Below, in pieces: positions 7,406 to 60,071 of a DNA stretch of 64,000 nucleotides; the stretch's first letter is position 1; every line of letters starts with the position of its first letter. Source of the DNA: Candidatus Woesearchaeota archaeon. GTDB lineage: Archaea; Nanobdellota; Nanobdellia; Woesearchaeales; UBA583. The notes beneath the pieces were generated by a model. The model ran no database searches. It was not told the origin of the DNA and was given only the letters and a program-made list of their open reading frames with translations. Location: positions 864,001 to 928,000 of the forward strand of contig OZ242164.1 in assembly GCA_965205335.1 (NCBI GenBank). Direction: 5' to 3'. Both the position numbers and the translations under genes were made by a program.

Positions 7406-7539
7406 ATATCCAATCTATCTCTAAATACATTTTAAATATTATAGTTGTAACTATGGGATTAAAAATAAATGATGGAGAGTTACCTCTAAAAGTAGAATAC
7501 AAAATCTTAAAAAACCAAGAAATCAAAAGAGGGTAGATA

Positions 7540-13641: not shown

Positions 13642-13784
13642 CATCTCAAAGAGAGCAGTAAGTTTGGGATGTTGAAGTTTCAACGTCTATTTCTGTTAAG
13701 GTTAATAATAATGAAAATAAAAATGATTACTAATGAGTAGTTAAAAAGGAAAGATTTATAAATAAAAGTCTCTTACTCCTTTAC

Positions 13785-24159: not shown

Positions 24160-26475
24160 TTGAAAGTGACAAATCAAGACAATTCTAGAGAAGAAGGACA
24201 AGAGAATTTAGAAGAGAAAATAGGGCTCTTTGGTAAATTCAGAGGACGAGGGAAGAAGAAAAAAGCAATAGTTGATGTGAGTTTTATGTCTTTACCAGGT
24301 CATAAAATTAATCTCAATGAAGGAGGAGGTGTTGATATTAATTCTGAAGAAGGTAAGGGTGTATCTTTGAAAATTCACAAAGAGAGGGGAAAGACTAGTA
24401 TTAATCCTACAGATGATCCGAACATTGCACATGTAAATTCTGATAGAGAGACTATTTTTGAGTCTTCTTTCCCTGGCATGGATGTTTTTGTTGGTAAAGG
24501 AGGGAATCGTTTTAAACCTATTGATGATAGAAATATTTCTTTTAACCTATTAGACAGGATGTTTTTGAATTTTGGTGGTAATATGAAAAATTATTTTCTT
24601 GCTAGACCTACATCCAGAAAAGGTATAAATTATATCATTAATGGTGTGATTGGGGTGGTTGAAGCTATCATTCCAAGAGGTGGAGGATTGCTTACTAAGT
24701 ATGGTGAGAAGGATACTAAATTAGTTCCTGTCTCCGAGTCAGGTACATCTGTTGAAGTAGGTAAGGAAGTTAAGGTGGTTGTTCCAAAAGATAGAGGATT
24801 GCTTACTAAGTATAGTGAGAAGGATACTAAATTAGTTCCTGTCTCCGAGCCAGGTACATCTGTTGAAGTAGGTAGGAAAGTTAAGGTGGTTACTCCAAAA
24901 AGAAAAAATTTATCTGCGAAATTTGGAGGAGATGGTACTGATACAATAAGTCCCACAGATAATTCTGTTCCAGTTGTTAATGCAGGTAGAGAATTTGAAG
25001 CTAGAACTTTAGAGGAGGAGATATTATCAGTGGAACTTGGCAGGAATTGGGCTATATTTAGACCTAAAGGCAAAGGGGATGATAACCCATCTGTAACTTT
25101 GCATGATAAGATAGAAGTTACGCCTCTGAAAAGTAGAGGTATAATTTGGAATGTGATAAAGAAAGGAAGATCAGCGGTGGTGACCGCTGAACCTATAAAA
25201 AAGGGAGGAAAATTTCTTAGAATGCCCAATGGAATACTTAATCTTAATAATTTTAAATATAAGTTGAGTGATGGGGGAATATTTGATTTTAATAAAGAAA
25301 AATGGAAGAAAAGATGGGTTAAAGGACTTTCTTTGATGGTATTAGGTAGCGCATTAGCAGGCGGAGTATTAAAATATCAATACCTAATGAATAATAATGA
25401 AGGGAGTTCTCCACAACAACCTCGTTCCAAGCGATTTGATAGTATACCAGAATTAGTAGAGGCAAATGGTATTTATATTTATCATAAGGGTGCTTTTGAT
25501 AGATGGACAGATGTCTGGTATGATATTAATACATCGCAAGGATTGTGTGAAAAAGATACTTATGTAACAGATAGAGTAAAAAGCAGACATCTTCTAGTAA
25601 GACTTGATGGGCGTGTCCCAAGGATTGTAAATACAAATGGGAACAATCAGAAAGAGAAAAAAAACCGAGGAAGAATGGTAGTTTCTCGTGAGATTCTAAT
25701 GAATTATGATTTGAGAATAGGTCATGGAGGAGATTTTGTTCTCCCTATAAGAAAAGGTGAACAAGGATATCCTTTTGCATTATATTGTAATGGAAGTAAA
25801 ATGGGAAAAGCAGTTGAGAGGTATCTTTCAGGAACGATACCACCTAATCAATGGTGGAAGGGGGCAGGATTGAAGAACAAGGAACTTAAATATGGTTCAG
25901 CATTTGAAGGAATTTTTAAAGATTTTAAAGATAATGAGGGAAATCCTACACTGCCCCAAGAACTTACACACTTACTTAAAGCACAAGCACTTGTTGAGAG
26001 TAGATTTATACCAGAGTCTATATCTCCTTCTGGTGCGAGGGGAATTCTGCAATTATTAAGAGGTACTCTTAGTCATTATGGTGTCAAGAGAGAGAATGAT
26101 TTTAAAATCCCTTATCAAATCAGATGTGCTTATGCACACTATGAAGATAAAATTAAGGAATTCAAACGATCATTGGGAGATATAAGAGCATCTGATGAAG
26201 ACAAAGCAAAACTTGCACTTTATTTAGCGATGCAGGCATATCATAGTGGGGAAGGTAATGTAAGTGGGATATTAAAAAAACCAGAATCAAAAGGAATCTT
26301 AGAAAAACTATTATCTGAAAACAGAAGTCCTCAAGAAGTAGTGCATGGATTGATAATATCAAATTATGGATTTGGAAAAATTTCTAATCGCAAAATAGGA
26401 GAAGAGTCCATAAATTACTTACCAAAGATCTTTGCCGCAGAAAGATTTCTATCAGAGAATGAATTGAGAAAGTAG
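24160..26475 (+). CDS. Membrane-anchored lytic transglycosylase (SLT family) with long N-terminal extension
   Basis: Catalytic ALVES, SGARGILQL, QAYHSGEGN, NYLPKI; TM GLSLMVLGSALAGGVL near aa 390. Confidence 0.85.
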   Translation: MKVTNQDNSREEGQENLEEKIGLFGKFRGRGKKKKAIVDVSFMSLPGHKINLNEGGGVDINSEEGKGVSLKIHKERGKTSINPTDDPNIAHVNSDRETIFESSFPGMDVFVGKGGNRFKPIDDRNISFNLLDRMFLNFGGNMKNYFLARPTSRKGINYIINGVIGVVEAIIPRGGGLLTKYGEKDTKLVPVSESGTSVEVGKEVKVVVPKDRGLLTKYSEKDTKLVPVSEPGTSVEVGRKVKVVTPKRKNLSAKFGGDGTDTISPTDNSVPVVNAGREFEARTLEEEILSVELGRNWAIFRPKGKGDDNPSVTLHDKIEVTPLKSRGIIWNVIKKGRSAVVTAEPIKKGGKFLRMPNGILNLNNFKYKLSDGGIFDFNKEKWKKRWVKGLSLMVLGSALAGGVLKYQYLMNNNEGSSPQQPRSKRFDSIPELVEANGIYIYHKGAFDRWTDVWYDINTSQGLCEKDTYVTDRVKSRHLLVRLDGRVPRIVNTNGNNQKEKKNRGRMVVSREILMNYDLRIGHGGDFVLPIRKGEQGYPFALYCNGSKMGKAVERYLSGTIPPNQWWKGAGLKNKELKYGSAFEGIFKDFKDNEGNPTLPQELTHLLKAQALVESRFIPESISPSGARGILQLLRGTLSHYGVKRENDFKIPYQIRCAYAHYEDKIKEFKRSLGDIRASDEDKAKLALYLAMQAYHSGEGNVSGILKKPESKGILEKLLSENRSPQEVVHGLIISNYGFGKISNRKIGEESINYLPKIFAAERFLSENELRK
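24671..24892 (+). repeat. 111-bp imperfect tandem duplication (37 aa) in the SLT N-terminal extension
   Basis: GLLTKY(G/S)EKDTKLVPVSE(S/P)GTSVEVG x2. Confidence 0.9.
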
Positions 26476-26484
26476 TTAATAAAA

Positions 26485-27747
26485 ATGGATAATAAAAACC
26501 TTTACAGTAAAATAAAAAAATATGGAGCTTCGGCAGGACTGCTGTTTGGGCTCTTTTTAGGAGGTTGTGATTACAATTTTCATGATAAAAATAACTCTTC
26601 AGATGCTCAAACTAATAAAGTTACAAAAACCCTTCCTTTAGAGTATTCCAAAAGACATCCATCAATACAAGCCTTAATTAAAGATAGAGGTGTTGAATAC
26701 TACCCTCCTAGTTCTTTTCAAACATGGACTCATTCATTAGTTGATATTTGTACAGGCACAGGTATTTGCTCAAAAGACGAATATAAGAGGCAAAGGTACA
26801 GACGAGTTTTTATAAGACTTGATGGAAAACTTGCAGGAACTGTAAATAGTAATACATTACCAGCAAGTATTAGAGGAGGTCAGCCCAGACGATTTAATGA
26901 AACAGAATGGAAACAAGTTGACGTGAGAATTAAAAGTGGACATGATTATGTTATTCCTTTTAATCAAGGTGATAAAGGATATCCATTTGGATTTAAATGT
27001 AATGGAAACATATTAAGAATCGGAATTGAGAGATACCTAAGGGGAGATATTAGAGGAGAGTATGGAGAATATGGGGAATATAATGTAGATTTTTACGAAG
27101 CATCATGGGGTGTTTATGTTGAAAATGGATTTCGGAAAAGAGGGATATTGCCAGAAGAGATATTTTATATAGTTAATGGTATGGCAAATGTTGAGAGTAA
27201 TTTCCTAAGAAGTGCAGAAAATAGTTCAACGGGTGCAAGGGGAATACTTCAACAGATGCCCAAAACTCTTCAAGATTGTGGAGTTCCTCAAAGTATGCAT
27301 AAAGATAGACTTGCTCAACTTGATTGTGCTTATAGATATTTTGAAGATAGATTTTCTCATTATGAACCACTAATAAATAATATAAAGATTAGTTCAGAAC
27401 AAAGAAATGAATTCTTGCTTTATCTGGCTGTTCAGGCTTATCATACAGGACAAGGTAATATAGAAAAAATATTAAAAGACCCAGAATCAATTAAAATTGC
27501 AAATAGATTTGTAGAAGAAGGAAGAGACCCTATTGAAATAGTACATGGGTTAACGATATTAAATTATGGACTTGGAAATAATGGGACTAAGGTAGGATTA
27601 GTATCTAGTTCTTATCTTCCCAAAGTAATAGCATCAGTTAGAATCTTAGAAGAAGTTAGACGAAAAAGAAGAAAAGAAGGGAATAGGATTAAAGGATATT
27701 CACTCCCTCCTCTACTCTTTCCTGAAGAAGAGGAAGGTAATAAATAA
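26485..27747 (+). CDS. Lipoprotein-like lytic transglycosylase (SLT family), paralog of the upstream gene
   Basis: Lipobox-like LFLGG|C; ANVES, TGARGILQQ, QAYHTGQGN, SYLPKV. Confidence 0.85.
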   Translation: MDNKNLYSKIKKYGASAGLLFGLFLGGCDYNFHDKNNSSDAQTNKVTKTLPLEYSKRHPSIQALIKDRGVEYYPPSSFQTWTHSLVDICTGTGICSKDEYKRQRYRRVFIRLDGKLAGTVNSNTLPASIRGGQPRRFNETEWKQVDVRIKSGHDYVIPFNQGDKGYPFGFKCNGNILRIGIERYLRGDIRGEYGEYGEYNVDFYEASWGVYVENGFRKRGILPEEIFYIVNGMANVESNFLRSAENSSTGARGILQQMPKTLQDCGVPQSMHKDRLAQLDCAYRYFEDRFSHYEPLINNIKISSEQRNEFLLYLAVQAYHTGQGNIEKILKDPESIKIANRFVEEGRDPIEIVHGLTILNYGLGNNGTKVGLVSSSYLPKVIASVRILEEVRRKRRKEGNRIKGYSLPPLLFPEEEEGNK

Positions 27748-38456: not shown

Positions 38457-39152
38457 TTATATATTTTTCATAAGATTCTTCAAATCTTTTATAAAATTAT
38501 CAAACATCTTCACATTATGACTCTCTTCAACATTAGTTTCACTCAAAACATATCCACAATCGGTATCCACTTCAACTATTGCCCTTCCCTTTTTAGAAGG
38601 TTTTTTAATCCTTAACGTCTCATCCTCATCAGGAGTTACAAAATAAACCTTAATATGTTTTGTTGCATCATCCAAAGAAAGTTTAAACTTCCAATAACCA
38701 GTCAGGGCTACCCTCTCTCTTAATGTAACTTTACTTGAAAGAACCACAATAACCTTACTTGTTTTTGGCTCATAAATAATTATATCTACATCTGGAAGAT
38801 GTGAACCAAATTCCCCATAATCAATAAGCAAATTTCTTTTTACTTGACTCAATTCCTTTGATAAATTTTCAGATTTTGTTCTTTCAAGAGAATTACCATC
38901 TACAATACTTAATCCCAAAGTCCTTACTTCATCAGAAATAATATGAATAATCAGTTTTTCAAGATTTTTGCCCTTGAAGGCTCTCCAAAATTGCTCATGA
39001 TCTCCACTTGCCGTTGGGTTCATTTCCCAATATTTTTTATGTAAAATCTTTGCCTCTCTAAGGAGTTTAGAAATATGTCTGTATGCATTAACTCCATATC
39101 TTCTCTGATTTTCTTCATAAAGTTCTTTTAAATCCTCAAACTTCATTACCAT
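38457..39152 (-). CDS. Type II restriction endonuclease, BsaWI-like (CCGG family)
   Basis: RAFKGKNLE, LPDVDIIIY, SSKVTLRERV (PD..K...RER signature). Confidence 0.8.
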   Translation of the reverse strand: MVMKFEDLKELYEENQRRYGVNAYRHISKLLREAKILHKKYWEMNPTASGDHEQFWRAFKGKNLEKLIIHIISDEVRTLGLSIVDGNSLERTKSENLSKELSQVKRNLLIDYGEFGSHLPDVDIIIYEPKTSKVIVVLSSKVTLRERVALTGYWKFKLSLDDATKHIKVYFVTPDEDETLRIKKPSKKGRAIVEVDTDCGYVLSETNVEESHNVKMFDNFIKDLKNLMKNI

Positions 39153-40587
39153 CTTTCTTGAATTTCTCCATTACTAAAATATATTCATAAGAATAAGCCA
39201 ATCTGTTAGCATTTTGTTTTGAAGTAAATCTTCCAGTTTTTGAATCTCTTGTCTGAGGTAACACCTTTGATGGAATCTTTCTCTTTATTATATTATGTAC
39301 CTTAAAACCAATATTTAACATAATTTCAACAAAAACTTGAGCATTTAATATTGGAACTCCCCTTAATTCCGTATTTCCAATCACAATACAAGTTCTGCCC
39401 TTGCGCTTTAAAACTCTACACATTTCCTCAAAGCATTCTTGCATCTCAAAAAAATAATTTCTCACTGCCTCTGATTCATTTTTGGATTTTTTACTTAATT
39501 CTATTATCTCCTGTTTTGCTAATTCGCTCTTAATTCCATTGTAATCAGATTCTTTTTTATGAATTGAACCAATAAAGTCCTTTCTAAATTCACTCACACT
39601 ATTGGTGTATCCAAGCCACAAAGCACTAAGTTGATGCAAGTCTGCATACTCATATGAAGTAACATAAGGAGGAGAAGTTACAATTAAACTAACAGAATTA
39701 TTTTCTATGATAAGATTTCTTGCATCTCCCTTCCTTAAATTCAAATAATTACTTAAATTATCCCTAACATCAGAAGGCAGAACTTCCCAATAAGTATCAT
39801 TACCTTTAACCATTTTCATAATTTGTCTTGTGAATAATTTTAGCGGAGAATCTATCCTTTTATTCAAATCCCTTGTTGGTTTTATGCTCTTCATTAGCCA
39901 AATAGAAGCATTCTTTAAAACATTTGAAAAGGCACATAAACAGAAATTACGGATGTCTTTATCATTAATTGTATCTATCCTTCCCAGAATTATACCCAAG
40001 TCATATCTTAATTTTTCGTTGGGAAACCAGTACTCAAGCCTTTCATTTTCCGGTATAACAGGCAGGATTTTTACATCTAATAAACTTTTTTGCCCATTGT
40101 CAGATTCAAAATAAGACCTTAAATCTGATAGGACTCTATTTATTTCATATTTCAATTTCTTGGGATTAATGGGAGTTGCTTTAACTTTGGAAATTAAATA
40201 AGCAACGGGATTTATATCAACTCCCACGACTTTTCTTTTCGCAACTAAAGATTCAATCAGAGTAGTTCCACAGCCCATAAATGGGTCACAAACAATATAA
40301 TCTACATCTGTATTCTCCTCAATACATCTCCTTGCAAGTTGGGGAATAAACTTGGCAGGATATTTATGAAAGCCATGAGTTGCATAAGATGTATCTTTTT
40401 GTGTTAAATCTTCAAAGACCCAACTTGGATCATCTTCCAAATGTTCAAAAATATGTTTTAATTCCACTTGTTTGTTAGGAACTTTCTCTATTAATACTCC
40501 TTTCTCAGTATGCAATAATTGTAAGTAATTCCTCTTTTTCTTCTTCGCTAATTTCTCAAATTGTAATTCCATTTTACAACTCTTCAC
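39136..40587 (-). CDS. Type II DNA methyltransferase, probably N4-cytosine (alpha motif order)
   Basis: HKYPAKFIPQL, DPFMGCGTT (motif I) before VTSPPY (motif IV). Confidence 0.9.
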   Translation of the reverse strand: MKSCKMELQFEKLAKKKKRNYLQLLHTEKGVLIEKVPNKQVELKHIFEHLEDDPSWVFEDLTQKDTSYATHGFHKYPAKFIPQLARRCIEENTDVDYIVCDPFMGCGTTLIESLVAKRKVVGVDINPVAYLISKVKATPINPKKLKYEINRVLSDLRSYFESDNGQKSLLDVKILPVIPENERLEYWFPNEKLRYDLGIILGRIDTINDKDIRNFCLCAFSNVLKNASIWLMKSIKPTRDLNKRIDSPLKLFTRQIMKMVKGNDTYWEVLPSDVRDNLSNYLNLRKGDARNLIIENNSVSLIVTSPPYVTSYEYADLHQLSALWLGYTNSVSEFRKDFIGSIHKKESDYNGIKSELAKQEIIELSKKSKNESEAVRNYFFEMQECFEEMCRVLKRKGRTCIVIGNTELRGVPILNAQVFVEIMLNIGFKVHNIIKRKIPSKVLPQTRDSKTGRFTSKQNANRLAYSYEYILVMEKFKKDGNEV

Positions 40588-40709: not shown

Positions 40710-40781
40710 TGCACATACCGGGATTCGAACCCAGATCTCCGGCTTGGAAGGCCGGAATTCTAGCCGTTGAACTATATGTGC
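40710..40781 (-). tRNA. tRNA-Gly(TCC), CCA not encoded
   Basis: Acceptor GCACATA/TATGTGC, anticodon stem CCGGC-CTTCCAA-GCCGG, T loop TTCGAAT. Confidence 0.95.
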
Positions 40782-40893: not shown

Positions 40894-41529
40894 ATGAAAT
40901 CAAAAAAATTAAAGTTAATCCTTTTAATCTTTATTATCTTATTTGCCTTAATAGTTCTATTTATTTACAACACTCATAAATCGGTTGAACAAGAACTAAG
41001 TGAAGAAGATTTAGAATTAAGAGAACTTTTGAAAAATCAAAATATTCAATCTAATGAACCAAAAATAATAGAGATGGATTTAGAATCAAAGTCTAATGAA
41101 GAAACTGAAAACGAAACAATTGAAAACAATGACACTGTAATTTCGCAAACAGAAAGCCAATCTGAATTGGTATTAATAAAAAGCGGTAATTTTGATCCTA
41201 ATGCTACTGGCAGTGATACATTTCACAGAGGATGGGGTTCAGTCAAATTAGTTAAATTTGAAGGAAAACATAAAATTATCTTTGGGGAAGATTTTAGAGT
41301 AATCAATGGGCCTGATTACAAATTATATCTGCTTAAAGAACAAAATATCCAAACAGAAGATGAATTTAATAAAAATAAAGCAGATGCATATAGAATTGCT
41401 GATATAAAACAATTTAAAGGTTTTCAGACATTTGAAGTGCCCCAAGACATTAACCCTGATGAAATTGAAAGCGTTGTTATATGGTGCGAGAGTTTTAGCC
41501 AGTTCATATCATCTGCGAATTTATATTAA
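40894..41529 (+). CDS. Membrane-anchored DM13 domain protein
   Basis: N-terminal TM; HRGWG, NGPDYKLYL, VVIWCESF. Confidence 0.85.
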   Translation: MKSKKLKLILLIFIILFALIVLFIYNTHKSVEQELSEEDLELRELLKNQNIQSNEPKIIEMDLESKSNEETENETIENNDTVISQTESQSELVLIKSGNFDPNATGSDTFHRGWGSVKLVKFEGKHKIIFGEDFRVINGPDYKLYLLKEQNIQTEDEFNKNKADAYRIADIKQFKGFQTFEVPQDINPDEIESVVIWCESFSQFISSANLY

Positions 41530-42307: not shown

Positions 42308-43465
42308 ATGAGATTTAATGTAATACTTGCTTTGTTTGTCTTAACATTTATTAGTGCATGCACATTAGAAGTTGAGAATCAAAGCAGAGACGTTAATGAG
42401 GTGAATAACACAGTGGAAGTGGATAATAAAGAATATGAAGTAGCAACATTCTCAGGAGGATGTTTTTGGTGCAGTGAGAAAGACTTTGAGAGATACGAAG
42501 GAGTAATTGAAGCAATTTCAGGATATGCTGGTGGAGAAGAGGAAAACCCTACATATGAGCAGGTATCATCAGGAAAAACAGGGCATAGAGAAGCAGTCTC
42601 TGTTCGTTATGACCCAAAAATTATAAGTTACGAAGAATTGCTTGAGATTTATTGGACACACATTGACCCAACAGATGACTCAGGTTCTTTTGTTGATAGA
42701 GGCTTTCAATATACATCAGCCATATACTATCATAACGAGATGCAAAGAGAACTTGCAGAAAAATCCAAAAAAGAACTTGAAGACTCTAAAAAATTTGACA
42801 AACCAATAGTTACCCCAATCATAAAATTTACAACATTTTATCCTGCTGAAGAATACCATCAGGACTATTACAAAAAAAATCCCATAAGATATAAAATTTA
42901 CAGAGGTGGTTCTGGAAGAGATAGATTTATTGAAGAAAACTGGGAAAACCAGACAGGAGAAAACGAGATTGGGGAAAACAAGATTGAAAAAGAGCAAGAA
43001 ACCGAACTGCCAACTAATTGGGAAGAATACGAAAAACCAGATGATGGAGAATTAAAAGACGAGCTATCTCCATTATCTTATGATGTAACACAAAATGATA
43101 CAACAGAGAGATCCTTTGATAATAAATACAATGACAATAAAGCAGAGGGAATTTATGTTGATATTGTATCAGGCGAACCCCTTTACAGTTCAACAGACAA
43201 ATATGACTCAGGAACTGGATGGCCTTCTTTTACAAAACCATTAAACGAATCTCACATTGTTTTGAAAAAGGATCACAAAATATTCATTCCCAGAACAGAA
43301 GTTAGATCAAAGTATGGGGACTCTCACATAGGACATGTATTTAATGATGGACCTGCTGATAAAGGTGGGAAGAGATACTGCATGAATTCTGCGGCAATGA
43401 GGTTTATTCCAAAAGAAGAAATGGAAAAAGAAGGCTATGGAAGTTATCTACATTTGTTTGAATAA
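42308..43465 (+). CDS. msrAB: Exported lipoprotein-like peptide-methionine sulfoxide reductase MsrA-MsrB fusion
   Basis: Lipobox-like FISA|C; [17 protein letters not shown]; [22 protein letters not shown]. Confidence 0.95.
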
Positions 43466-46758: not shown

Positions 46759-47583
46759 ATGAAGATAGCCTTAAAACTAAACAAATCCATTAACGATAAC
46801 GCAAACATTTACTTTGAAAAAGCAAAAAAACTCAAATCCAAAATTAAAGGGATAAATAACATCATTTCTAGAACCAAAAGAGAAATCAAAGAATTTGAAA
46901 ACAAAAAACAAGAATACATAAAAAAAAAAGAAATAACCTATAAGATAAACCTTCATAGAAAAAAAGAATGGTATGAAAAATTCAGATGGACTAAAACATC
47001 AAAAGGATTTCTTGTTGCAATCGGCAAAGACTCAGGAACAAATGAAATTCTTATTAAAAAGCATCTTGAAGAAAACGATTTGGTAATACACACGCAGGCT
47101 CAGGGCTCTCCTTTTGGTTTAATTAAAAATGCAAAAGATAAAGTTTCAAAAGAAGAAATTGAAGAAGCCATGCAGTTTGTATGCTGTTTCTCAAAACAGT
47201 GGGCGAGAGGATATGGAAATGCAGATGCCTTCTGGGTTTTACCTAACCAAATATCAAAAAAAGCCCAGAGCGGTGAATACATATCAAAAGGAGCATTTAT
47301 GATAAGAGGGAAAAAAAACATCGTAAAAAACATTCAGACAAGAATCTGTCTTGGAGTAACAAAACACAAAATCAAAACTCCCGAGGGAGAAATTGAAACA
47401 GAAGAACTATTCTCAGGTTCAGAAAAAGCCTGCATAAAACTATGCAAAAACAGATACATTAAACTTGAACCAGGAAACTCAAATTACAAAGTCCTAAACA
47501 AAGAAATAAAGAAGAAATTAAAAACCCATATTGAAGATTTGCCCAAATACATCCCAAACAACTGCAAAATACTAAAAAAATAA
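46759..47583 (+). CDS. Rqc2/RqcH (NFACT) C-terminal half: coiled coil plus NFACT-R
   Basis: SINDNANIYFEKAKK, KKEWYEKFRW, GKDSGTNE, QISKKAQSGEYISKGAFMIRGKK. Confidence 0.88.
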   Translation: MKIALKLNKSINDNANIYFEKAKKLKSKIKGINNIISRTKREIKEFENKKQEYIKKKEITYKINLHRKKEWYEKFRWTKTSKGFLVAIGKDSGTNEILIKKHLEENDLVIHTQAQGSPFGLIKNAKDKVSKEEIEEAMQFVCCFSKQWARGYGNADAFWVLPNQISKKAQSGEYISKGAFMIRGKKNIVKNIQTRICLGVTKHKIKTPEGEIETEELFSGSEKACIKLCKNRYIKLEPGNSNYKVLNKEIKKKLKTHIEDLPKYIPNNCKILKK

Positions 47584-48997: not shown

Positions 48998-51271
48998 CTA
49001 TCTACTCCAAGTAATAAAAGAACTTAAATCAGGGGCACTATTAATATTAAATCTATCATACTCTGAATTTCCACTTGAATCAACAGGAGATACCTTTCTA
49101 ACCTCAATTGAAGTAATATCAGAAGAATATTGCAGATTTTCAATCTTTCCATTGTCATCGACTTCTGAAGTTATTACATTTGGTGAATCTAATTCACTTC
49201 TGTACACTAAAGTTTGAGTATATAAAGATTTAACGTCTTCCGATTCCTTAGGCCTCCACTGGATGAAAAAATCATTTCCTACTCTATTTAAACTATAAGA
49301 CACAAAAACCACAGAACTAATATCGGGTGGTTTATTATCTATTATCTCTACAACATTCTTATATGGCCTAATTAAAATTCCATCTTCCTTATTTAGAACA
49401 TAATAATTAGTATCACTTGTGGAACTCTGTGAAATATCATACTCCTTAAAAATCTCTCTGAGAGTTCCACGTCCCTGCTCATCCTCTGTAACCAAAACAA
49501 CATTATAATTCTTTGAATTCTCTAAACTAAACTCAGGTCCAACAAAAACAACTTTTTCGTAATTTGGATTATTCACATTAGAAATATCAGAAGTAACCAA
49601 AACATTAGTATCTATTTTTGACAAACTCTTATAACAAAAATTTGTATTGCAAACACCTTTTTCAAGTTCCACATCATCATCACCCACTTTATAAACATAC
49701 AAACCGTATGAATAAATCTCATCATCAGAATTATCGTCAACATTAATATTAATAGCAAATGAATTCTCCATATCTGGCAAATTATTAATTATAGAGACTT
49801 CATCCGTTCTCAAAGATCTTGGCCCAAAAACCTTTTGGGGGATTTTTGAATTATATGAAAGTTTAAGCAGATTCTCATCTGTAAAATAATTATAATTCGG
49901 GTGATCTACTGCAAAAACAGCAAAATAAACCTTTCTCCCTTCCTCAAGCAGAACATAATCCTCAGAATCAAAATCATATATCTGATAAACTATTTTACTC
50001 TTAATACTATTTGGTCCAAAACCACCTTCACCATCAACTAATAAAAGATTCAAATTCAAATTGCTATCCTCATTAGAATGATAATACTTAACTCCATCAA
50101 CTGAAATAGAAGTATCATGCAAAGTACTTGGAATCTCGCTATTAACAAGCAAATCCTTCAACTTATTATATTTCTCAGAACCATAAACTTCAGGATCAAA
50201 AAAATCCTCATATGAATATAGCACAATAAACCTATTAGAAACTTCCTTTGTTGCAAACTTTGAAATTCTTATCTTTATTGCATTATCTAAAACCTCAAAA
50301 TTACTAAGAGAATATTCAACCACATCATAAGGAGCCTCATCTAAAACAATCATAAACTCCAAATCCAAATTACCTTCCTTAGAATCAAAATTAACCATGA
50401 AAATATCATAACCTTCAAGAGGAATTTCAGAAAGTTCTTTTACAGAAACATCAAACTCACTTAAAATTTTAGAATTCTTCTTACGAATCAATTCCTTAAA
50501 AATCAAATTAATACAATACTCTACTTTATTTATTACATTATCTGGAATATCCTCACGCCTTCTGCAAACAGGAATTTCACTTTTCACAGAATCAGATAAC
50601 TCAGGCAGAACATGATTTATCACATTAAAAAGTTCAGAATAAGAACCTAATACAAAATCAAACTCATATACATTATCTCTTGAAACAGAACCCACATCAG
50701 AAGAATACAACTGATTAGATGAAATACTTATCAAAAACTCAGAATGAGAAGCAGAACTAACATCTATGGACTTAAGATCTAAATCATTACTTTTACTAAA
50801 AAACCCCCCTATTTCTTTTTTCAATTCTTTTTCTAAATAAATTGCAAAAGCATTATTAAACTCCTCCACATCACTAATACAAGAAACACCATCACTATCA
50901 TCTGTCTTTGTTTCATCAATTAACTTCTGATTATAAAAAATAGGTGTTTTTGTCTCGTCATAAAGACATCCAACAAAATTCTCTCTATCAAGATCATCTA
51001 AATTCCTTTCAATACCATATAACTGGTTATCTATGAAATCATCAATTGACTTTGAAGCATAATTCAAAACAAACGAATTCAAAAAAATCTCTTCATAAAA
51101 AGATATTGAATTAGACTTATCAACAGATTTCAAAATAAAAAACTCTTTATCAAAATATGAATCCTTATGACTTGACAAAACAAAAATAAAAAAAGCTAGA
51201 ACTAAAATAATCATTGCGACAGACATAATATATGGGAAAATTGTACTTGCTTTTTTATTAAACATAATCAT
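48998..51271 (-). CDS. Large acidic surface protein with class III-like signal peptide
   Basis: NKKA|STIFPYIMSVAMIILVLAFFIFV; beta-rich C-terminal half. Confidence 0.6.
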   Translation of the reverse strand: MIMFNKKASTIFPYIMSVAMIILVLAFFIFVLSSHKDSYFDKEFFILKSVDKSNSISFYEEIFLNSFVLNYASKSIDDFIDNQLYGIERNLDDLDRENFVGCLYDETKTPIFYNQKLIDETKTDDSDGVSCISDVEEFNNAFAIYLEKELKKEIGGFFSKSNDLDLKSIDVSSASHSEFLISISSNQLYSSDVGSVSRDNVYEFDFVLGSYSELFNVINHVLPELSDSVKSEIPVCRRREDIPDNVINKVEYCINLIFKELIRKKNSKILSEFDVSVKELSEIPLEGYDIFMVNFDSKEGNLDLEFMIVLDEAPYDVVEYSLSNFEVLDNAIKIRISKFATKEVSNRFIVLYSYEDFFDPEVYGSEKYNKLKDLLVNSEIPSTLHDTSISVDGVKYYHSNEDSNLNLNLLLVDGEGGFGPNSIKSKIVYQIYDFDSEDYVLLEEGRKVYFAVFAVDHPNYNYFTDENLLKLSYNSKIPQKVFGPRSLRTDEVSIINNLPDMENSFAININVDDNSDDEIYSYGLYVYKVGDDDVELEKGVCNTNFCYKSLSKIDTNVLVTSDISNVNNPNYEKVVFVGPEFSLENSKNYNVVLVTEDEQGRGTLREIFKEYDISQSSTSDTNYYVLNKEDGILIRPYKNVVEIIDNKPPDISSVVFVSYSLNRVGNDFFIQWRPKESEDVKSLYTQTLVYRSELDSPNVITSEVDDNGKIENLQYSSDITSIEVRKVSPVDSSGNSEYDRFNINSAPDLSSFITWSR

Positions 51272-51277
51272 CTTTCT

Positions 51278-51850
51278 TTAAGGACCTCCAGGAACTCTGA
51301 CAATAGGAGAATTTGGTAAAAACTTATTAAAATAGACTTTAGTATAACCTGAATTAGAAGTTCTAATAGTCACAAAATAATTCAAGTTCAAAAGAGGACC
51401 ATAATAATAAATAGGAGCATCCTTTTCACTTTTTATATCAAGCAGAGTATCTCTATTAACTTTTGTGCCTGAATGTTTCTCATAAAGTTCATAAATATCT
51501 TTTTTTTCTGATGACTTACCAATCTCACTTAGGTATTCTTCTTTATATTCCCCAACCAAAGATAAACTATCTTTAGTATCAAGCCAGATTAAATCATAAA
51601 CCCTATAATCACGCGAACTGTCTCCAAAATGCTCTTTGGCTTCATCATCACTAATCTTTAGCATCAGAAAAGTATTAACAAAAACTCTGGGGAACTCATA
51701 TAACAAATCAGGAACACTTTCTTCTATATCATCATTAAGTGCACTTGAAGAAGAAAATGCAAGGTACATTACAACAGAACAAACTACTAAAGTCACTGCC
51801 CAAAGCACATATGAATACAACAAATACTGGGCTTTTTTTGAATCTTTCAT
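51278..51850 (-). CDS. Pilin-like protein with class III signal peptide
   Basis: SKKA|QYLLYSYVLWAVTLVVCSVVMY. Confidence 0.6.
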   Translation of the reverse strand: MKDSKKAQYLLYSYVLWAVTLVVCSVVMYLAFSSSSALNDDIEESVPDLLYEFPRVFVNTFLMLKISDDEAKEHFGDSSRDYRVYDLIWLDTKDSLSLVGEYKEEYLSEIGKSSEKKDIYELYEKHSGTKVNRDTLLDIKSEKDAPIYYYGPLLNLNYFVTIRTSNSGYTKVYFNKFLPNSPIVRVPGGP

Positions 51851-51853
51851 TTT

Positions 51854-53566
51854 TTAATAATGAGGAAATTTGTGAACCTTCTTAAAAATATCATAAACCT
51901 TTGTTAAATCATCAAATGTATCAAGTTGAGCAACAATATTAGCTCTATCTCTCTTCTTTGCTTCCTTACTGTATTTTTCAGGAACATCAGGTCCACTTGA
52001 TTTCTTAATATTTTTACTTCTCTTTTCTTCCTTCTTACCACCCCCAATATCAGGTTTAATTACTGAAAACAAATCCGTTTCATCAGGATCTGGAAATTCT
52101 TCATTAAAGAAATTCATATATGCAAGCAAATCATCACGAATTATAGCCAATTCTTCAATAAATGATTCCATAATTCTGAGATTATCCACCTTTAACTTCT
52201 CTCTATATGATGCTAATTCATAAATATTCCATGTTACTCCCTTATAATTTATATCATTTCTCGTATTGGGAATAAACTGCTCTCCTTGTTGCGTTGTAAT
52301 CTTCTCAGAACGTCTTCTCTGTGAAAAATTATACTCAATTATTGGTAACTTTCTCATATCTATCTTGAAAACATAAGCAGGATTTTCTTTCCATTTCCTT
52401 TTTATTTCCTTAAACTCCTTAGGGGTAATATCCTTATTTTTTGATTCAAAAAAAACATACTTAGGATGAGTTCCTCTTTCTTCTCCTGCTAAAAACCCAC
52501 TCTTTTTTCTATATTTTCCAGCTATTATCTCAAAACCATTAATAAAAAGTCCATATCTTGTAAACTCAATATCTGTCATCTCATTCTCCCCTCTGGGCTT
52601 AAAGAAATATCTTGGAGAAACCACTTTGATATTAGAAAAAGAAGCATCCATAAGATTTAACAAATCAGGATGATTCTCCTCAAAACCGTAAAACCAATTT
52701 TCTGAACTTGTTCCTTCCATCTTCCTGTTAATCTCCATCAAAAGAGGTTTCATAAAAGTAATATACATCTGCGTCTGGGCATAAATATTTTTCAAAGCTG
52801 AAATCTTAAGTCTAAACGTCATCTCAGTATCCTTAATTGCAGTTGGAAGCCAAGTATAAAACCTATACATAAACCTTGCAGTATGTTCTGATGCCAAATG
52901 AGACACATCAACAGGATAAATATCTTCATCAAGTTGCTGCTTAAATGTCTTTTTTGTCTGAAAAGGATCATCTAAATTAATTCCAAAAAACAACTGAGGC
53001 AAAAGAGCAAAATCCAACCCCTGTTCTGTCTGAGGCTTGTGCATTTGCCAGATTTTTCCACCATCAACCTCATTCACCCATTTATCCTTTAAATGATTAA
53101 CCGCTTCATTTCTCTCATTTCTCCATTTCTTCAAATCCTCTGAATTAGGGTTCTCCTTTTTCAGTTCGTTCTGAACCAAAGCATCATTATAAGTTATCTT
53201 ATCAAACCACTTTTTATAAAAGTGAACTTCCTTAACCTCTTTTAGAAGAGGAATCAAATGCTGACGAATAAGAGTTATCAACTGCTGAAAATTCTCCTGA
53301 AAAGCCTTTATTGCATTTCCCTTAATTTGTCTCACATTTCCTCCAAACTGAGAGGATTCACTAAAATAGTGATTATCCTCAAACTTTAGAAAATTCCATC
53401 CTTTCCCGTTAGTATGTCCGAAATGAATATGCCAAAAATAAATATCAGACAAATCTACATTAGGTCCATGAATAGATATCCTCAATTCCATAAAAGGTTT
53501 ATCTAAAGAAGCAGTCCGAGTGTACTCTGTCTTAGCTCTATCTAAAAGCAAAAAATCATCAGCCAT
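51854..53566 (-). CDS. Hypothetical protein (resembles a conserved DPANN family)
   Basis: 570-aa ORF; LKDKWVNEVD and YDIFKKVHK motifs. Confidence 0.65.
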   Translation of the reverse strand: MADDFLLLDRAKTEYTRTASLDKPFMELRISIHGPNVDLSDIYFWHIHFGHTNGKGWNFLKFEDNHYFSESSQFGGNVRQIKGNAIKAFQENFQQLITLIRQHLIPLLKEVKEVHFYKKWFDKITYNDALVQNELKKENPNSEDLKKWRNERNEAVNHLKDKWVNEVDGGKIWQMHKPQTEQGLDFALLPQLFFGINLDDPFQTKKTFKQQLDEDIYPVDVSHLASEHTARFMYRFYTWLPTAIKDTEMTFRLKISALKNIYAQTQMYITFMKPLLMEINRKMEGTSSENWFYGFEENHPDLLNLMDASFSNIKVVSPRYFFKPRGENEMTDIEFTRYGLFINGFEIIAGKYRKKSGFLAGEERGTHPKYVFFESKNKDITPKEFKEIKRKWKENPAYVFKIDMRKLPIIEYNFSQRRRSEKITTQQGEQFIPNTRNDINYKGVTWNIYELASYREKLKVDNLRIMESFIEELAIIRDDLLAYMNFFNEEFPDPDETDLFSVIKPDIGGGKKEEKRSKNIKKSSGPDVPEKYSKEAKKRDRANIVAQLDTFDDLTKVYDIFKKVHKFPHY

Positions 53567-53672
53567 TTATATAAACCAATATATTTTTAATTTATAAATT
53601 TCGTTCTAACTTAATAAGTAGTGTTTAAAAGCGCAAAAGCAGATTTATAACTAAACAAAAATTCCTAAAAAT

Positions 53673-54293
53673 ATGTTAAGCGAATTCATTTCCAAAACTC
53701 ATATTAAAAAATTGGCAATATACAAAAATAAATTTTCCTGTAACAAACCATTTAACAATCTATCAATACCTAAATTTTTAGACGAAAAACTTGCAAGAAA
53801 AATTAAAAACGCCTTAAAAAAAGAGGAATACTACATTGAAGAAAACGATTTATACAAATTCCAGAGAACAGTTGACTTTAAACACCTAAAAAACAAAACC
53901 CTAAAAGAACTTAGAAATAACTTGTTATCAGAAGAATTCATATCCTATATTGAAAATCTCACAAATACCAAACTAAAAAGAAACAAAATTGACTTGCACT
54001 CTCTAAAACTTCTAAACACTCATTATCTTCTGTGCCATGACGATGATATTTTAGGCAGAAAAATAGCATTCATTCTAAACCTCTCTGAAAACAGGAGCAC
54101 AAAAGATGGAGGAAACTTAGAATTATTTGAATGCAAAAACAACAAACCATTTAAAATTTGCAAATCAATTACTCCCCAATTTAACCAATTTAACATTTTT
54201 ATTGTAGAACCAAACAAATCCTTTCATCAAATATCAGAAGTACTGTCAAACAAACAAAGAATATCAATTTCAGGATGGTTTCATTACAAATGA
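53673..54293 (+). CDS. 2OG-Fe(II) oxygenase, OGFOD1/Tpa1-like catalytic domain
   Basis: YLLCHDD..GRKIAFIL (HxD), GGNLELF, SFHQISEV (distal His), RISISGWFH (RxS). Confidence 0.88.
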   Translation: MLSEFISKTHIKKLAIYKNKFSCNKPFNNLSIPKFLDEKLARKIKNALKKEEYYIEENDLYKFQRTVDFKHLKNKTLKELRNNLLSEEFISYIENLTNTKLKRNKIDLHSLKLLNTHYLLCHDDDILGRKIAFILNLSENRSTKDGGNLELFECKNNKPFKICKSITPQFNQFNIFIVEPNKSFHQISEVLSNKQRISISGWFHYK

Positions 54294-54895
54294 AAATTAA
54301 CAAAACATACGAAAAAAAATCTATAATCTCTCAGATGAGTAAATACTTTAATCAAAATGAATTTATCTTATTAAACAGTTTCTTTGAGAATGACATATCC
54401 AAAATTAAATCCAATATTCTAAAAGAAGATTTTAAAGAAGAATACAACCCAATATCTCACAGAAAAAAAATTCTTAACAAAAAAGACATATATGCTCCTA
54501 AAATACTTGAATTATTTAACTATTTTAAATCAAAAGAATTCACTCATTTAATAAAAGAAATAACCCATTTAAACCTTCGGATTACAAACATTGAACTATA
54601 TAAATATTCACATAAAGATTTCATAATACTAAACGATGAAACAAAACCACAAAACACTGTTGATGTAATATTTGATTTAACCTCAGATTGGAAAAAAGAA
54701 AATGGAGGTATTCTAACTTATACAACAAAAAACAAAGAACTCCTATATATAACTCCTGATTTTAATACATTAACAATAGTAAATAAGCCCAAAGAAATTA
54801 TGAAATACTTAAAATACATAAATAACAAAGCAAAAACTAATCAAATACTTAGATTTGAAATTACCTTTAATATAAGGAAATTACCAAAAAAATAA
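54290..54895 (+). CDS. Degenerate 2OG-oxygenase fold, OGFOD1/Ofd1 C-terminal-domain-like
   Basis: ATGA overlap with the upstream stop; INKTY, WKKENGGILTY, ELLYITPDFNTLTIV, MKYLKYIN; HxD replaced by NDE. Confidence 0.78.
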   Translation: MKINKTYEKKSIISQMSKYFNQNEFILLNSFFENDISKIKSNILKEDFKEEYNPISHRKKILNKKDIYAPKILELFNYFKSKEFTHLIKEITHLNLRITNIELYKYSHKDFIILNDETKPQNTVDVIFDLTSDWKKENGGILTYTTKNKELLYITPDFNTLTIVNKPKEIMKYLKYINNKAKTNQILRFEITFNIRKLPKK

Positions 54896-54986
54896 ATAAA
54901 AAAATCAGAAAACCTTTCTAAACTAACTCTTTTAACACACCTCTACTTTTAGAAAAATTTATAATCTAATAGAAATTAAAAATAAT

Positions 54987-55448
54987 ATGTTTATGCCAAA
55001 TATTCCAAGAAGAAAAATCTATGAAGTAATGCTTGAATTTGAAGATGGAATGATTGAAATGCAGATTTTGCTCTATAACAGAGATAATTTTGAGAAATTC
55101 AGAGAATCATTTTACGATGAAGGTTATCCTAAAATAAGAACTTCCTATAAAAAAATTAAAGTTCTAATGATTATGTTCTTGGAAAACAGAAAATATACAT
55201 CCCATGAAGAATTTGAAAAGGACTTAAATCATCTAAAAAGAAATGATGAAAATGTCAAAAAACATTTATGGAAGAGTAAGAATTTACCTTTAAAATTCAA
55301 ATTTCTAATATTAAGAATAGATTATCTTATGAGAAAATATCCAAAAATAAACAACAGATTCATTGCCAGAATTCTGTATCGAAACTTTGACAAGTTCAAT
55401 TCTCAAGTTCCCAAAATTCTTGAACTAAGACGCGATTATATGAAATAA
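54987..55448 (+). CDS. Hypothetical protein
   Basis: 153-aa ORF ending 1 nt before the ThiS-like gene. Confidence 0.55.
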   Translation: MFMPNIPRRKIYEVMLEFEDGMIEMQILLYNRDNFEKFRESFYDEGYPKIRTSYKKIKVLMIMFLENRKYTSHEEFEKDLNHLKRNDENVKKHLWKSKNLPLKFKFLILRIDYLMRKYPKINNRFIARILYRNFDKFNSQVPKILELRRDYMK

Positions 55449-55449
55449 A

Positions 55450-55650
55450 ATGGAAATATACATTGAAAAAGAAAATACAACAAAACAAATTAAACTTGAA
55501 AAAAATGAGAAGATAAAAGAAGTTTTAAAAGAACTTGGAATCTCAATAAACTCTGTAATTCTCGTTAAAAATGATACAATATGCCTTGAAGATGAAACAG
55601 TTTCAGATGAAGACAAAATAAAAATCCTCTCAGTTGTTTCAGGCGGTTAA
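55450..55650 (+). CDS. MoaD/ThiS-family ubiquitin-like protein (SAMP-like)
   Basis: 66 aa beta-grasp pattern ending ILSVVSGG. Confidence 0.9.
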   Translation: MEIYIEKENTTKQIKLEKNEKIKEVLKELGISINSVILVKNDTICLEDETVSDEDKIKILSVVSGG

Positions 55651-59041: not shown

Positions 59042-60071
59042 GGCTCTGTCCGAAAATTAATTTTTTTAAGGAAGAAGAGATGAAAACACTATTTGATACT
59101 AAAACATTATTATTTTTCTTTTGAAAATTATCCAATTTTCATAGAAGAAAATTACATAAGAAAGTTTTTTTCTTATGTTATACCACAGAATATTCCATGC
59201 TATTTCTCTTTTTTTCATAAAATGTGTCCTACTTCTGATATTTAGTCCTTGAACTCTCTTCAGGGATGAAAACACACTCTCCACATTGTTCCTTTTATTG
59301 TATAATTCTTTATTTTTGTGATATTTTTGTTTGATTTTACAATGTTTAACGATATTATGTTTAGTTTTTCCATAATTTTTTGGCGGGAAAATCAAATCTA
59401 TATCTTTTTCTTTGAGATTTTCTAAATGATCAAAGGAAAAGTATCCTTTATCTGCGACAAGGACACTTTTCCTGACTTTTAATCTTTTGAAAAGTTTGTT
59501 TGCAACTTTTGAATCATGCTGATTCTTAACCAAGAAAGAAAAGTCTATTATTTGTTTAGAGCCTTGCACATCACAAATTATGTCTAATTTATGCCAAGGA
59601 GATTTGGGTTCAAATCGTATTCTATGTTTGTAATAAGTAGTTTTATGGTCTGCATCAATTCCCGAACCATCAATTGCTACAAGTTCTGGGTTGGAATTCT
59701 CTAAAGAAAATCTAATCAAATCTCGGATAAAAGAAACTGAGAAGGACTTTAACCAATCATGGAGAGTTGATTTTCCTGGAATATGTTTTAGTTGCAACCA
59801 ATGTTTCCAAGCAGTTAAAACGCCGTCTAAATTGCTTACGAACCTTCTAAGAGATTTTCCTGATTGGATATATAAGACTATTATAGCAACTCTTTGATAA
59901 TTATTAAAGAGTTTGCAACCCCTCACAAAATTGTGAGGCCTTAACCTTAAACTATGACAAAGTTTAAGTATTTCTTTATGTAAACTATTAGTAAAGTTGG
60001 TTGTCTTTAGCATAAAAAACTACCAACTTTACACTTTATTAATTCTTTGATTTGAATTTTCGGACAGAGCC
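59042..60071 (-). mobile_element. Complete IS5-family element (size and 8-bp DR fit the ISH1 subgroup)
   Basis: TIR GGCTCTGTCCGAAAATT/AATTTTCGGACAGAGCC; TSD AAATAATG at 59034-59041 and 60072-60079. Confidence 0.92.
59099..60013 (-). CDS. IS5-family DDE transposase
   Basis: AIDGSG, VADKGY, YNKRNNVESVFSSLKR. Confidence 0.92.
   Translation of the reverse strand: MLKTTNFTNSLHKEILKLCHSLRLRPHNFVRGCKLFNNYQRVAIIVLYIQSGKSLRRFVSNLDGVLTAWKHWLQLKHIPGKSTLHDWLKSFSVSFIRDLIRFSLENSNPELVAIDGSGIDADHKTTYYKHRIRFEPKSPWHKLDIICDVQGSKQIIDFSFLVKNQHDSKVANKLFKRLKVRKSVLVADKGYFSFDHLENLKEKDIDLIFPPKNYGKTKHNIVKHCKIKQKYHKNKELYNKRNNVESVFSSLKRVQGLNIRSRTHFMKKREIAWNILWYNIRKKLSYVIFFYENWIIFKRKIIMF

Follow-up and report, generated by a model that had tools for sequence, protein, structure and literature searches.

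The overlapping gene pair and its two domains

The window, by which we mean the whole 64-kb stretch of archaeal DNA analysed here, carries on its + strand gene 1 (53673..54293; 206 amino acids), the putative catalytic subunit and the equivalent of the N-terminal domain of OGFOD1/Tpa1, and gene 2 (54290..54895; 201 amino acids), a putative non-catalytic double-stranded beta-helix subunit and the equivalent of the C-terminal domain of OGFOD1/Ofd1. The two share an ATGA overlap on the + strand (54290..54293), in which the ATG of gene 2 (54290–54292) interlocks with the stop codon of gene 1 (54291–54293), the letters at the junction being ...CAT TAC AAA TGA AAA.... An in-frame ATG at 54275 offers an earlier start for gene 2 and is the one chosen by the ORF listing; 54290 is the better start, since an alignment of 43 homologues opens at its Met (consensus MxxxINxxY). 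A candidate archaeal TATA box, TTTATA, was read from the + strand sequence at 53644..53649, 24–29 nt 5' of the gene 1 ATG, a position at which it would give gene 1 a transcript that is leaderless or has a short leader; a second TTTATA lies at 54958–54963, 24–29 nt 5' of the ATG of the next gene (54987), and no such box separates the two overlapping genes. The NFACT gene is likewise split in the 64-kb window.

The original prediction described the locus as an ATGA-coupled, two-gene form of the eukaryotic ribosomal prolyl hydroxylase, in which gene 1 stands for the active N-terminal domain and gene 2, a second oxygenase-like fold lacking iron ligands, for the inactive C-terminal one. Direct reading of the sequence bears out both open reading frames and their overlap as well as every motif that had been quoted for gene 1 (LLCHDDDILGRKIAFIL, GGNLELF, SFHQISEVLS and RISISGWFH), and the homology claim is upheld by Pfam, phmmer and Foldseek alike, the two profiles proposed as a check both matching above their cut-offs. 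Gene 1 matches 2OG-FeII_Oxy_4 with an E-value of 4.1e-29 (101 bits, cut-off 27) and is the only match to PF13640 in the 1.2 Mb genome. By phmmer against the PDB, its residues 26–204 align with chain residues 80–258 of human OGFOD1 (E 1.8e-29), followed by yeast Tpa1 (E 2.8e-17), and no other PDB sequence is matched at E<=0.01. Among 24 eukaryotic OGFOD1 proteins the identity to gene 1 is 35–42% over 87–97% of the gene 1 length.

The iron triad of gene 1 is intact (H122, D124 and H185), as is the 2OG-binding R196-x-S198. These residues line up with H155, D157, H218, R230 and S232 of human OGFOD1, the uS12/RPS23 prolyl 3-hydroxylase (PDB 4nhx, 4nhy), as they are named in PMC4396695, so that the HxD...H triad and the RxS motif are common to the two proteins. 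None of the 20 aligned archaeal homologues departs from the triad or the arginine, and the same holds for all 27 sequences of a set that includes 11 eukaryotic ones; gene 1 is accordingly predicted from its residues to be a catalytic 2OG/Fe(II) domain. The Tyr169 of OGFOD1 hydrogen-bonds the C-5 carboxylate of 2OG. At this position the window has Asn136, which is nearly invariant among the 20 close homologues of gene 1, whereas the tyrosine is retained in all five of the Asgard copies of gene 1 discussed below and also in loci from one scan, the search pattern of which itself ends in Tyr.

Gene 2 matches Ofd1_CTDD (PF10637) over profile positions 10–239 of 255 (E 7.2e-18; 65 bits, cut-off 27), and it also matches the C-terminal domain of OGFOD1 at chain residues 461–540 by phmmer (E 2.3e-11). 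The Pfam scores of both genes lie well outside anything that chance would give. The AlphaFold2 model of gene 2 (mean pLDDT 96.7) has as its best Foldseek matches OGFOD1 (4nhy, TMq 0.87) and the C-terminal domain of fission-yeast Ofd1 (6e0t, TMq 0.84, TMt 0.69), in keeping with the second oxygenase-like fold that had been proposed. At the positions aligned with H122, D124, H185 and R196 of gene 1 it carries N, E, K and I, and in an alignment of 43 homologues the four columns in turn have H (18 sequences), D (4), H (3) and R (18). The protein is thus an iron-free second beta-helix domain of the Ofd1_CTDD type. Its similarity to gene 1 extends along the entire protein (hhalign probability 99.4%, E 2e-21), and the two genes are ancient paralogues.

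The archaeal pair differs from its eukaryotic counterparts in how the domains are joined. OGFOD1 is a single chain with a 31-residue proline-rich linker and an acidic insert in its C-terminal domain, whereas the archaeal form, in an archaeal rather than a eukaryotic host, consists of two polypeptides from overlapping genes and lacks the insert in gene 2. The C-terminal domain of Tpa1 resembles gene 2 in fold (TMq 0.75–0.76) and only weakly in sequence (E 0.35), and the archaeal pair has no match to the 95-residue linker and other elements, absent from OGFOD1, to which the dimerisation of Tpa1 has been ascribed (PMC4396695). Profiles built from DPANN sequences match the eukaryotic fused proteins end to end, with 133–191 bits for the N domain and 96–164 bits for the C domain, the exceptions being an insect protein in which the C domain is found in two pieces and a fish protein of 1004 amino acids that is matched in fragments. 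Single-domain prokaryotic and phage 2OG-FeII_Oxy_4 or prolyl hydroxylases, such as the Pseudomonas P4H and PHD2-like enzymes, share the double-stranded beta-helix fold and cofactor chemistry with this family and occupy nearby clusters in the protein atlas; they rank lower as fold matches to the gene 2 model (TMq 0.59–0.69), have no Ofd1_CTDD partner and are missing from the PDB matches of gene 1 at E<=0.01. We therefore rejected the reading of gene 1 as a generic single-domain bacterial enzyme of the P4H/PHD type, given its conserved partner gene and its PDB matches, which are confined to OGFOD1 and Tpa1.

Occurrence of the pair and variation at its junction

Whole-genome sampling covered two phyla, and the genome-wide pattern scans saw four motif variants only; within that scope the pair was found in 75 of 401 genomes sampled from the phylum to which the window belongs, in 13 of the 19 further genomes from the window organism's genus, and in 5 of 301 genomes sampled from the second phylum. 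The five holders in the second phylum were recognised as Asgard archaea by their eukaryote-like actin, ESCRT-III and haem-copper oxidase, and are of the aerobic Heimdall/Kari type. So patchy a distribution, in the phylum sample as in the genus, implies that the pair is not essential. In the first scan gene 2 lies directly 3' of gene 1 at 28 of 28 loci; in the second, which gave 12 loci, both genes are complete at eight, gene 2 is partial at two and absent at two, and at these last two loci it was not found within 3 kb of gene 1, so that the second subunit may be dispensable there or encoded elsewhere. All five Asgard loci have the pair. In many DPANN archaea and in a few of the Asgard group the two genes are inherited together, as neighbours that usually overlap. 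The surrounding genes give no conserved tie between the pair and the ribosome, no gene being common to more than 9 of 29 loci.

The split form is found at every archaeal locus with both genes (45 distinct loci, the window included), and the fused form in all 24 eukaryotic sequences that were placed in trees. The homologues retrieved by one search fall into 572 clusters at 50% identity; among the best 150 matches, 133 are stand-alone proteins of <=214 amino acids, and the 17 fused proteins with a species name are all eukaryotic. We rejected the idea that the pair entered the archaeal bins as eukaryotic contamination: it occurs in a 1.2 Mb single-contig genome and about 660 kb into a large Asgard contig and is always split. 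A viral origin was likewise unsupported, the eukaryote-type patterns matching no viral contig and the archaeal patterns giving one partial single-domain match.

In the window the two genes share 4 nt and the frame of gene 2 is −1 with respect to that of gene 1, which raises the question of whether a single fused protein might be made after all, either because a programmed −1 frameshift joins the two ORFs during translation or because the split is a sequencing error. Across 29 loci, in which the starts of gene 2 were picked by a heuristic, the junction is a 4-nt overlap in 9 and a 1-nt overlap in 5, and over the whole set takes the form of overlaps of 1–23 nt or gaps of 1–31 nt; gene 2 is found in either of the two frames other than that of gene 1, the stop codons differ, and a slippery site at a fixed place is not conserved. 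A junction so variable argues against frameshifting, and the recurrence of the split at the 45 loci, from independent assemblies that include single-contig genomes, rules out an assembly error, leaving a fused product very improbable. Our main reading, to which we assign a probability of roughly 0.6, is instead that gene 1 and gene 2 form one operon and encode a two-subunit orthologue of the uS12 (RPS23) prolyl 3-hydroxylase OGFOD1/Tpa1/Ofd1.

Candidate substrate and proposed use of oxygen

In the mechanism that we propose, the overlap would couple translation of gene 1 to that of gene 2, and the two proteins would associate through their minor sheets in the manner of the two domains of OGFOD1. 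The resulting heterodimer would use O2, 2-oxoglutarate and Fe(II) to hydroxylate the KQPNSA-loop proline that uS12 of the organism itself carries in the decoding centre, and the modification, and with it possibly the accuracy of decoding or termination, would come to depend on the supply of oxygen, iron and 2OG. In humans the uS12 loop proline hydroxylated by OGFOD1 is Pro62. The original prediction had called for an inspection of this loop, and KQPNSA is indeed present both in the uS12 of the window's genome, which reads EKTEREAKQPNSALRKCV, and in that of the five Asgard holders, which reads SKQPNSALRKCV. Its presence does not by itself single out uS12 as the target, since only six uS12 genes were viewed and all of them come from pair-holding genomes; uS12 is accordingly a putative substrate of the archaeal pair.

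The pair may also act as an OGFOD1-like hydroxylase on a target other than uS12, such as a different translation factor, a protein of the host cell or a small molecule, a reading that we consider unlikely. Substrate specificity is unreadable from sequence, and related single-domain prolyl hydroxylases have other targets, the Foldseek list itself containing the Pseudomonas P4H with EF-Tu (4iw3). The exchange of Tyr169 for Asn in the window's clade would alter the 2OG pocket, and DPANN archaea rely on hosts. Against these points, the pair retains the full two-domain architecture of the uS12 hydroxylases and not the catalytic fold alone, OGFOD1 is the closest solved hydroxylase to gene 1, and the loop that is the target in eukaryotes occurs in archaeal uS12.

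As to oxygen, the window's genome encodes an Fe/Mn superoxide dismutase and, within the 64-kb window, an MsrA/MsrB fusion; a search of that genome for COX1 and cytochrome bd found neither. Lacking these terminal oxidases, the window organism would use O2 as a substrate or signal and not for respiration. COX1 is present in all five of the Asgard pair holders. The proposed reaction would thus place an O2-dependent modification of the translation machinery both in DPANN cells that are tiny and do not respire and in Asgard archaea that have an oxidase, and may bear on how oxygen shaped the lineage leading toward eukaryotes.

Origin of the split and fused forms

The original prediction offered two origins for the split form, a prokaryotic precursor of the fused enzyme or a eukaryote-to-archaeon transfer followed by fission, and listed a phylogeny among its checks. 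The trees gather the eukaryotes into a single group, which one branch sets apart in each of them (support 95–100); paralogue rooting gave two root positions. The nearest archaeal neighbour of the eukaryotes is the window's clade (support 100/98), the groups of the N tree return in the C tree, and archaeal branch lengths are comparable with or exceed the whole eukaryotic spread. In a paralogue-rooted tree of 98 rows the root falls inside DPANN, and in one of 128 rows it falls on the eukaryotic branch with the archaeal copies as one group; we used neither root because the two trees disagree in its placement. A homologue search aimed at single-domain outgroups listed, in nearly every row, eukaryotic full-length OGFOD1. 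The duplication that produced the N and C domains is older than the divergence of archaea and eukaryotes, and both a fusion in eukaryotes and a fission after an early transfer are compatible with the trees.

We tentatively propose, at rather less than even odds, that hydroxylation in the decoding centre was an archaeal invention and that OGFOD1 arose by fusion of an archaeal operon that survives in DPANN and in Asgard archaea of the Heimdall/Kari type. The closest living relative of the eukaryotic form would then be the window's DPANN clade, so that a DPANN-like symbiont could have supplied the gene to the eukaryotic stem, in place of vertical descent from the Asgard host. It is also possible, though again short of an even chance, that the archaeal pairs descend from the fused gene of an early eukaryote (stem or early crown), transferred once, split and then spread among DPANN and Asgard archaea. 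Such a transfer is consistent with the patchy archaeal distribution, with the second split gene, NFACT, in the same window, and with the 128-row tree, in which the N clade joins the C tree beside the eukaryotic C domains (support 91); the AU test does not reject monophyly among the archaeal C domains (p-AU 0.46), and a single fission and a single fusion are equally parsimonious. The single eukaryotic group, however, means that no sampled eukaryotic lineage is the donor, the 98-row tree roots inside DPANN, and the archaeal diversity is deep, as seen in the long branches, the number of homologue clusters and the predominance of stand-alone proteins among the best matches. A simple route, moreover, would be for a tandem duplicate to begin as two genes and to be fused later.

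The OGFOD1/Tpa1/Ofd1 subfamily has been stated to occur only in eukaryotes (PMC4396695), and a passage of a 2015 review describes protein modification by 2OG oxygenases as common among eukaryotes and a large number of prokaryotes "but not archaea" (PMC4543633). Our search of one collection of papers by enzyme name and archaeal group names found no description of the enzyme in archaea. If the archaeal pair is a natural two-subunit form, the role of the enigmatic C-terminal domain becomes testable by omitting one subunit, and the origin of a eukaryotic ribosome modification becomes traceable, one fusion or one fission separating the two forms. Some archaeal homologues already carry the label "Tpa1-like" from automatic annotation.

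A two-gene archaeal counterpart of OGFOD1

Gene 1 (53673–54293, forward strand, 206 amino acids) and gene 2 (forward strand, ending at 54895) together encode an archaeal version, divided into two subunits, of an enzyme known from eukaryotes; its activity is predicted from the sequence. Gene 1 matches the Pfam family 2OG-FeII_Oxy_4 (E 4.1e-29), and a search of all PDB sequences at E<=0.01 returned nothing but human OGFOD1 (E 1.8e-29, query residues 26–204) and three entries for Tpa1 (E about 3e-17). Residues H122, D124, H185 and R196-x-S198 align with H155, D157, H218 and R230-x-S232 of OGFOD1, which serve the human enzyme as iron triad and as RXS motif for 2OG binding (Horita et al., PMC4396695). 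All 20 archaeal homologues keep the triad and the arginine, as do all 27 sequences of a set that includes 11 eukaryotic proteins. One residue of the 2OG pocket differs, with Asn136 at the position of OGFOD1 Tyr169, and may alter 2OG binding.

Gene 2 matches Pfam Ofd1_CTDD above the curated cut-off (E 7.2e-18, profile positions 10–239 of 255) as well as the C-terminal part of OGFOD1 (E 2.3e-11). Its AlphaFold2 model, built from 43 sequences, has a mean pLDDT of 96.7, and Foldseek places OGFOD1 (TMq 0.87) and the C-terminal domain of fission-yeast Ofd1 on its own (TMq 0.84) at the top, whereas single-domain hydroxylases score lower (TMq 0.59–0.69). The two genes are paralogous over their whole length in a profile-profile comparison (probability 99.4%, E 2e-21), yet at the triad and arginine positions of gene 1 gene 2 carries N, E, K and I, and these positions are degenerate across its 43 homologues. 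The observation behind the original prediction, an OGFOD1/Tpa1-type N-terminal domain followed by an oxygenase-like fold without iron ligands, is confirmed in every detail, and each gene matches the HMM that had been named for it.

The two reading frames had also been described as coupled by an ATGA overlap, and in CATTACAAATGAAAA the stop codon of gene 1 and the ATG of gene 2 do share four bases. Gene 2 has two in-frame starts, at 54275 and 54290; we take it as 54290–54895 (201 amino acids) because the alignment of 43 homologues begins at the overlap ATG. A TTTATA lies 24–29 nt upstream of the gene 1 ATG, where we infer a promoter element, and a second precedes the next downstream gene by the same spacing; since the window sequence has none between gene 1 and gene 2, the pair looks like a self-contained bicistronic unit. 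Across 29 loci, with gene 2 starts picked by nearness to the profile start, the genes overlap by 4 nt in nine, 1 nt in five and 13 nt in five, the remainder overlapping by 8–23 nt or being separated by 1–31 nt, and both non-zero frame relations occur. This variety, seen in independent assemblies, argues against the split being a sequencing artefact and equally against a conserved programmed frameshift joining the two genes.

Distribution of the split and fused forms

The 46 close stand-alone homologues of gene 1 are 195–219 amino acids long except for one of 181, and source names such as "Rps23 Pro-64 3,4-dihydroxylase Tpa1-like" and "2OG-Fe(II) oxygenase [Nanoarchaeota archaeon]" hint that automatic annotation already points toward a Tpa1-like identity. 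All 24 longer relatives are OGFOD1-like (490–555 amino acids), 23 with fungal or insect names and one without a name. An exhaustive search of gene 2 against 1.84 billion cluster representatives returned 572 clusters at E<=1e-3; among the best 150 of these, 133 are of at most 214 amino acids and 17 of at least 363, with the match at the C-terminal end. Every fused protein with a species name in the best 150 is eukaryotic (holders include Rozella, Basidiobolus, Chromosphaera, Pythium, a locust and amphioxus), and those lacking names have motifs of the eukaryotic type.

The pair is widespread in DPANN archaea and occurs also in aerobic Asgard archaea. Of 19 further genomes in the genus, 13 hold it (single-protein query), and of 401 genomes sampled from the phylum 75 do, in 58 of 281 genera (profile query, E<=1e-8), nearly all of the 75 having two adjacent matches. 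Pattern scans covered one genome for each of 185,579 species. In the first, gene 2 was a separate ORF directly after gene 1 at all 28 loci; the second, with eukaryote-type motifs, added 12 loci, eight with both genes complete and separate and two with a partial gene 2 (truncated by the contig end in one case, next to a stretch of N in the other). At the last two, the DPANN-labelled L041 and L042 of eukaryote-like motif type, no gene 2 lies within 3 kb of gene 1, and either the partner is encoded elsewhere or these lineages manage without it. Some public locus labels are unreliable, since loci filed under "Methanosarcinales" or "Bdellovibrionales" have sequences identical to those from the window's own genus.

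The second scan included a locus labelled Candidatus Kariarchaeota, which NCBI taxonomy places in the Asgard kingdom, and among 301 genomes sampled from that genome's phylum five (2.9–3.6 Mb) carry the pair, in each case as two ORFs. All five encode actin (Pfam Actin score 445–456 bits) along with haem-copper oxidase subunit I, and have two Snf7/ESCRT-III genes side by side. In one, the pair lies about 660 kb into a large contig, which excludes contamination by a DPANN contig for at least that genome, and an identical public locus is labelled Candidatus Heimdallarchaeota. The Asgard gene 1 proteins have Tyr at the Tyr169 position. One pair-bearing Asgard contig (C377, locus L051, genome G431) also has, at about 7221–8324 and 13024–13959, ORFs that resemble, by eye over the first 50 residues, a RuBisCO-type large subunit and an aIF2B-like ribose-1,5-bisphosphate isomerase.

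The OGFOD1 subfamily is described as eukaryote-only (Horita et al., PMC4396695), and a 2015 JBC review says "but not archaea" of protein modification by 2OG oxygenases (PMC4543633). No description of an archaeal OGFOD1/Tpa1 homologue was found in the mostly open-access literature searched, including that on DPANN and Asgard archaea; the pair may already be in print beyond that range. The Ofd1_CTDD literature found consists of older structural or survey papers, and "Tpa1" in the Asgard literature found abbreviates a transporter.

Fusion or fission

Joint trees divide the N domains from the C domains with full support, with archaeal and eukaryotic sequences on both sides, so that the duplication is older than the archaeal-eukaryotic divergence. 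The trees leave out a 1004-amino-acid fish protein whose repeats are odd and two eukaryotic rows that are partial, and also the archaeal loci L041 and L042, which lack gene 2, L045 and L048, whose gene 2 is partial, and L050 and L019, which duplicate L054 and L057. Eukaryotes form one side of a branch in every concatenated N+C tree, with supports of 95 (SH-aLRT), 97 and 100/98 (bootstrap/SH-aLRT) in three trees, the last of which was built with care on 36 of the 64 rows. The 13 loci of the window's clade likewise hold together (support 99–100) and are joined to the eukaryotes by a branch with support 98, or 100/98 in the 36-row tree; the Asgard sequences (95/91) fall on the opposite side of that branch with the remaining DPANN sequences. 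Several rows, the window's included, deviate in amino-acid composition, and the two stems are fairly long. Constraining eukaryotes to group with Asgard costs 14.65 log-likelihood units (p-AU 0.027), a weak rejection, as the grouping was chosen after the tree was inspected.

The original prediction offered a prokaryotic precursor later fused in eukaryotes or a eukaryote-to-archaeon transfer followed by fission. One fusion on the eukaryotic stem would explain the data, as would one fission after a very early transfer. Paralogue rooting gave conflicting positions, on the eukaryotic branch in a 128-row tree and between a single DPANN group and all other sequences in a 98-row tree, and archaeal monophyly is not rejected (p-AU 0.46). 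Because the eukaryotes stay together on one side of a branch throughout, the data do not fit a recent transfer out of any eukaryotic lineage sampled.

Predicted target and genomic setting

The uS12 of the source genome carries EKTEREAKQPNSALRKCV and that of the five Asgard holders SKQPNSALRKCV, the loop in which the original prediction puts the target proline of OGFOD1 and which it proposed to look for. In human OGFOD1 the target residue is Pro62 (Horita et al., PMC4396695). Together with the retention of the full two-domain architecture of uS12 hydroxylases and a catalytic core very close to that of OGFOD1, the loop suggests that the pair hydroxylates uS12, a reading to which we give a probability of roughly 0.6. 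The loop is necessary for it but not discriminating, because it was read solely in pair-holding genomes. Caution about uS12 as target comes from the patchy distribution of the pair, which is hence not essential, the lack of any conserved ribosome-linked gene in the neighbourhoods compared, and Asn136 with its possible effect on 2OG.

The source genome (1.2 Mb, a single contig, rated 95% complete) belongs to a DPANN-type archaeon, since relatives in its genus and order are publicly labelled Woesearchaeota, Nanoarchaeota and Nanoarchaeia. The window is AT-rich (GC about 26–35%), and its genes for TFIIB, aIF2-gamma, an eRF1/Pelota-like protein, SecY with a Sec61-type plug and a RadA/RadB-type ATPase mark it as archaeal. 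Gene 1 is the only PF13640-type oxygenase found in the genome, and neither COX1 nor cytochrome bd was found in it. A Fe/Mn superoxide dismutase, a fused MsrA-MsrB methionine sulfoxide reductase (42308–43465, forward) and a DM13-domain protein (40894–41529, forward) point to exposure to O2. The organism evidently meets O2 without respiring it, a setting that O2 as substrate or signal would fit.

Directly upstream of the pair, on the reverse strand, are three consecutive ORFs of 757, 190 and 570 amino acids (48998–53566), the first and third of which, when scanned, gave no significant Pfam family. Downstream, an unassigned 153-amino-acid ORF (54987–55448) precedes a 66-amino-acid ThiS/SAMP2-like protein with a GG end (55450–55650, forward; ThiS E 1.3e-8, SAMP2 E 5.3e-7), which is not a conserved neighbour at other pair loci. 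The ribosome-quality-control factor NFACT also seems to be divided between two genes that lie 24 kb from each other on different strands, one for an NFACT_N protein (21506–22633, reverse, E 2.9e-38) and one with the end of NFACT_N plus NFACT-R_1 (46759–47583, forward, E 1.1e-30), making it a second split translation-linked gene in the window. A 1516-amino-acid protein with several PKD and Ig-like domains (16896–21446, forward) is probably a surface protein, and two adjacent large SLT lytic-transglycosylase-domain proteins (24160–26475 and 26485–27747, forward; E 4.9e-9 and 2.2e-7) could cleave the peptidoglycan of a bacterial partner. A BsaWI-type restriction endonuclease adjoins an N4/N6 DNA methylase as a type II restriction-modification pair (38457–40587, reverse), with tRNA-Gly(TCC) just downstream (40710–40781), and a DDE_Tnp_1 transposase (59099–60013, reverse, E 8.9e-22) marks an insertion sequence within this 1.2 Mb genome.
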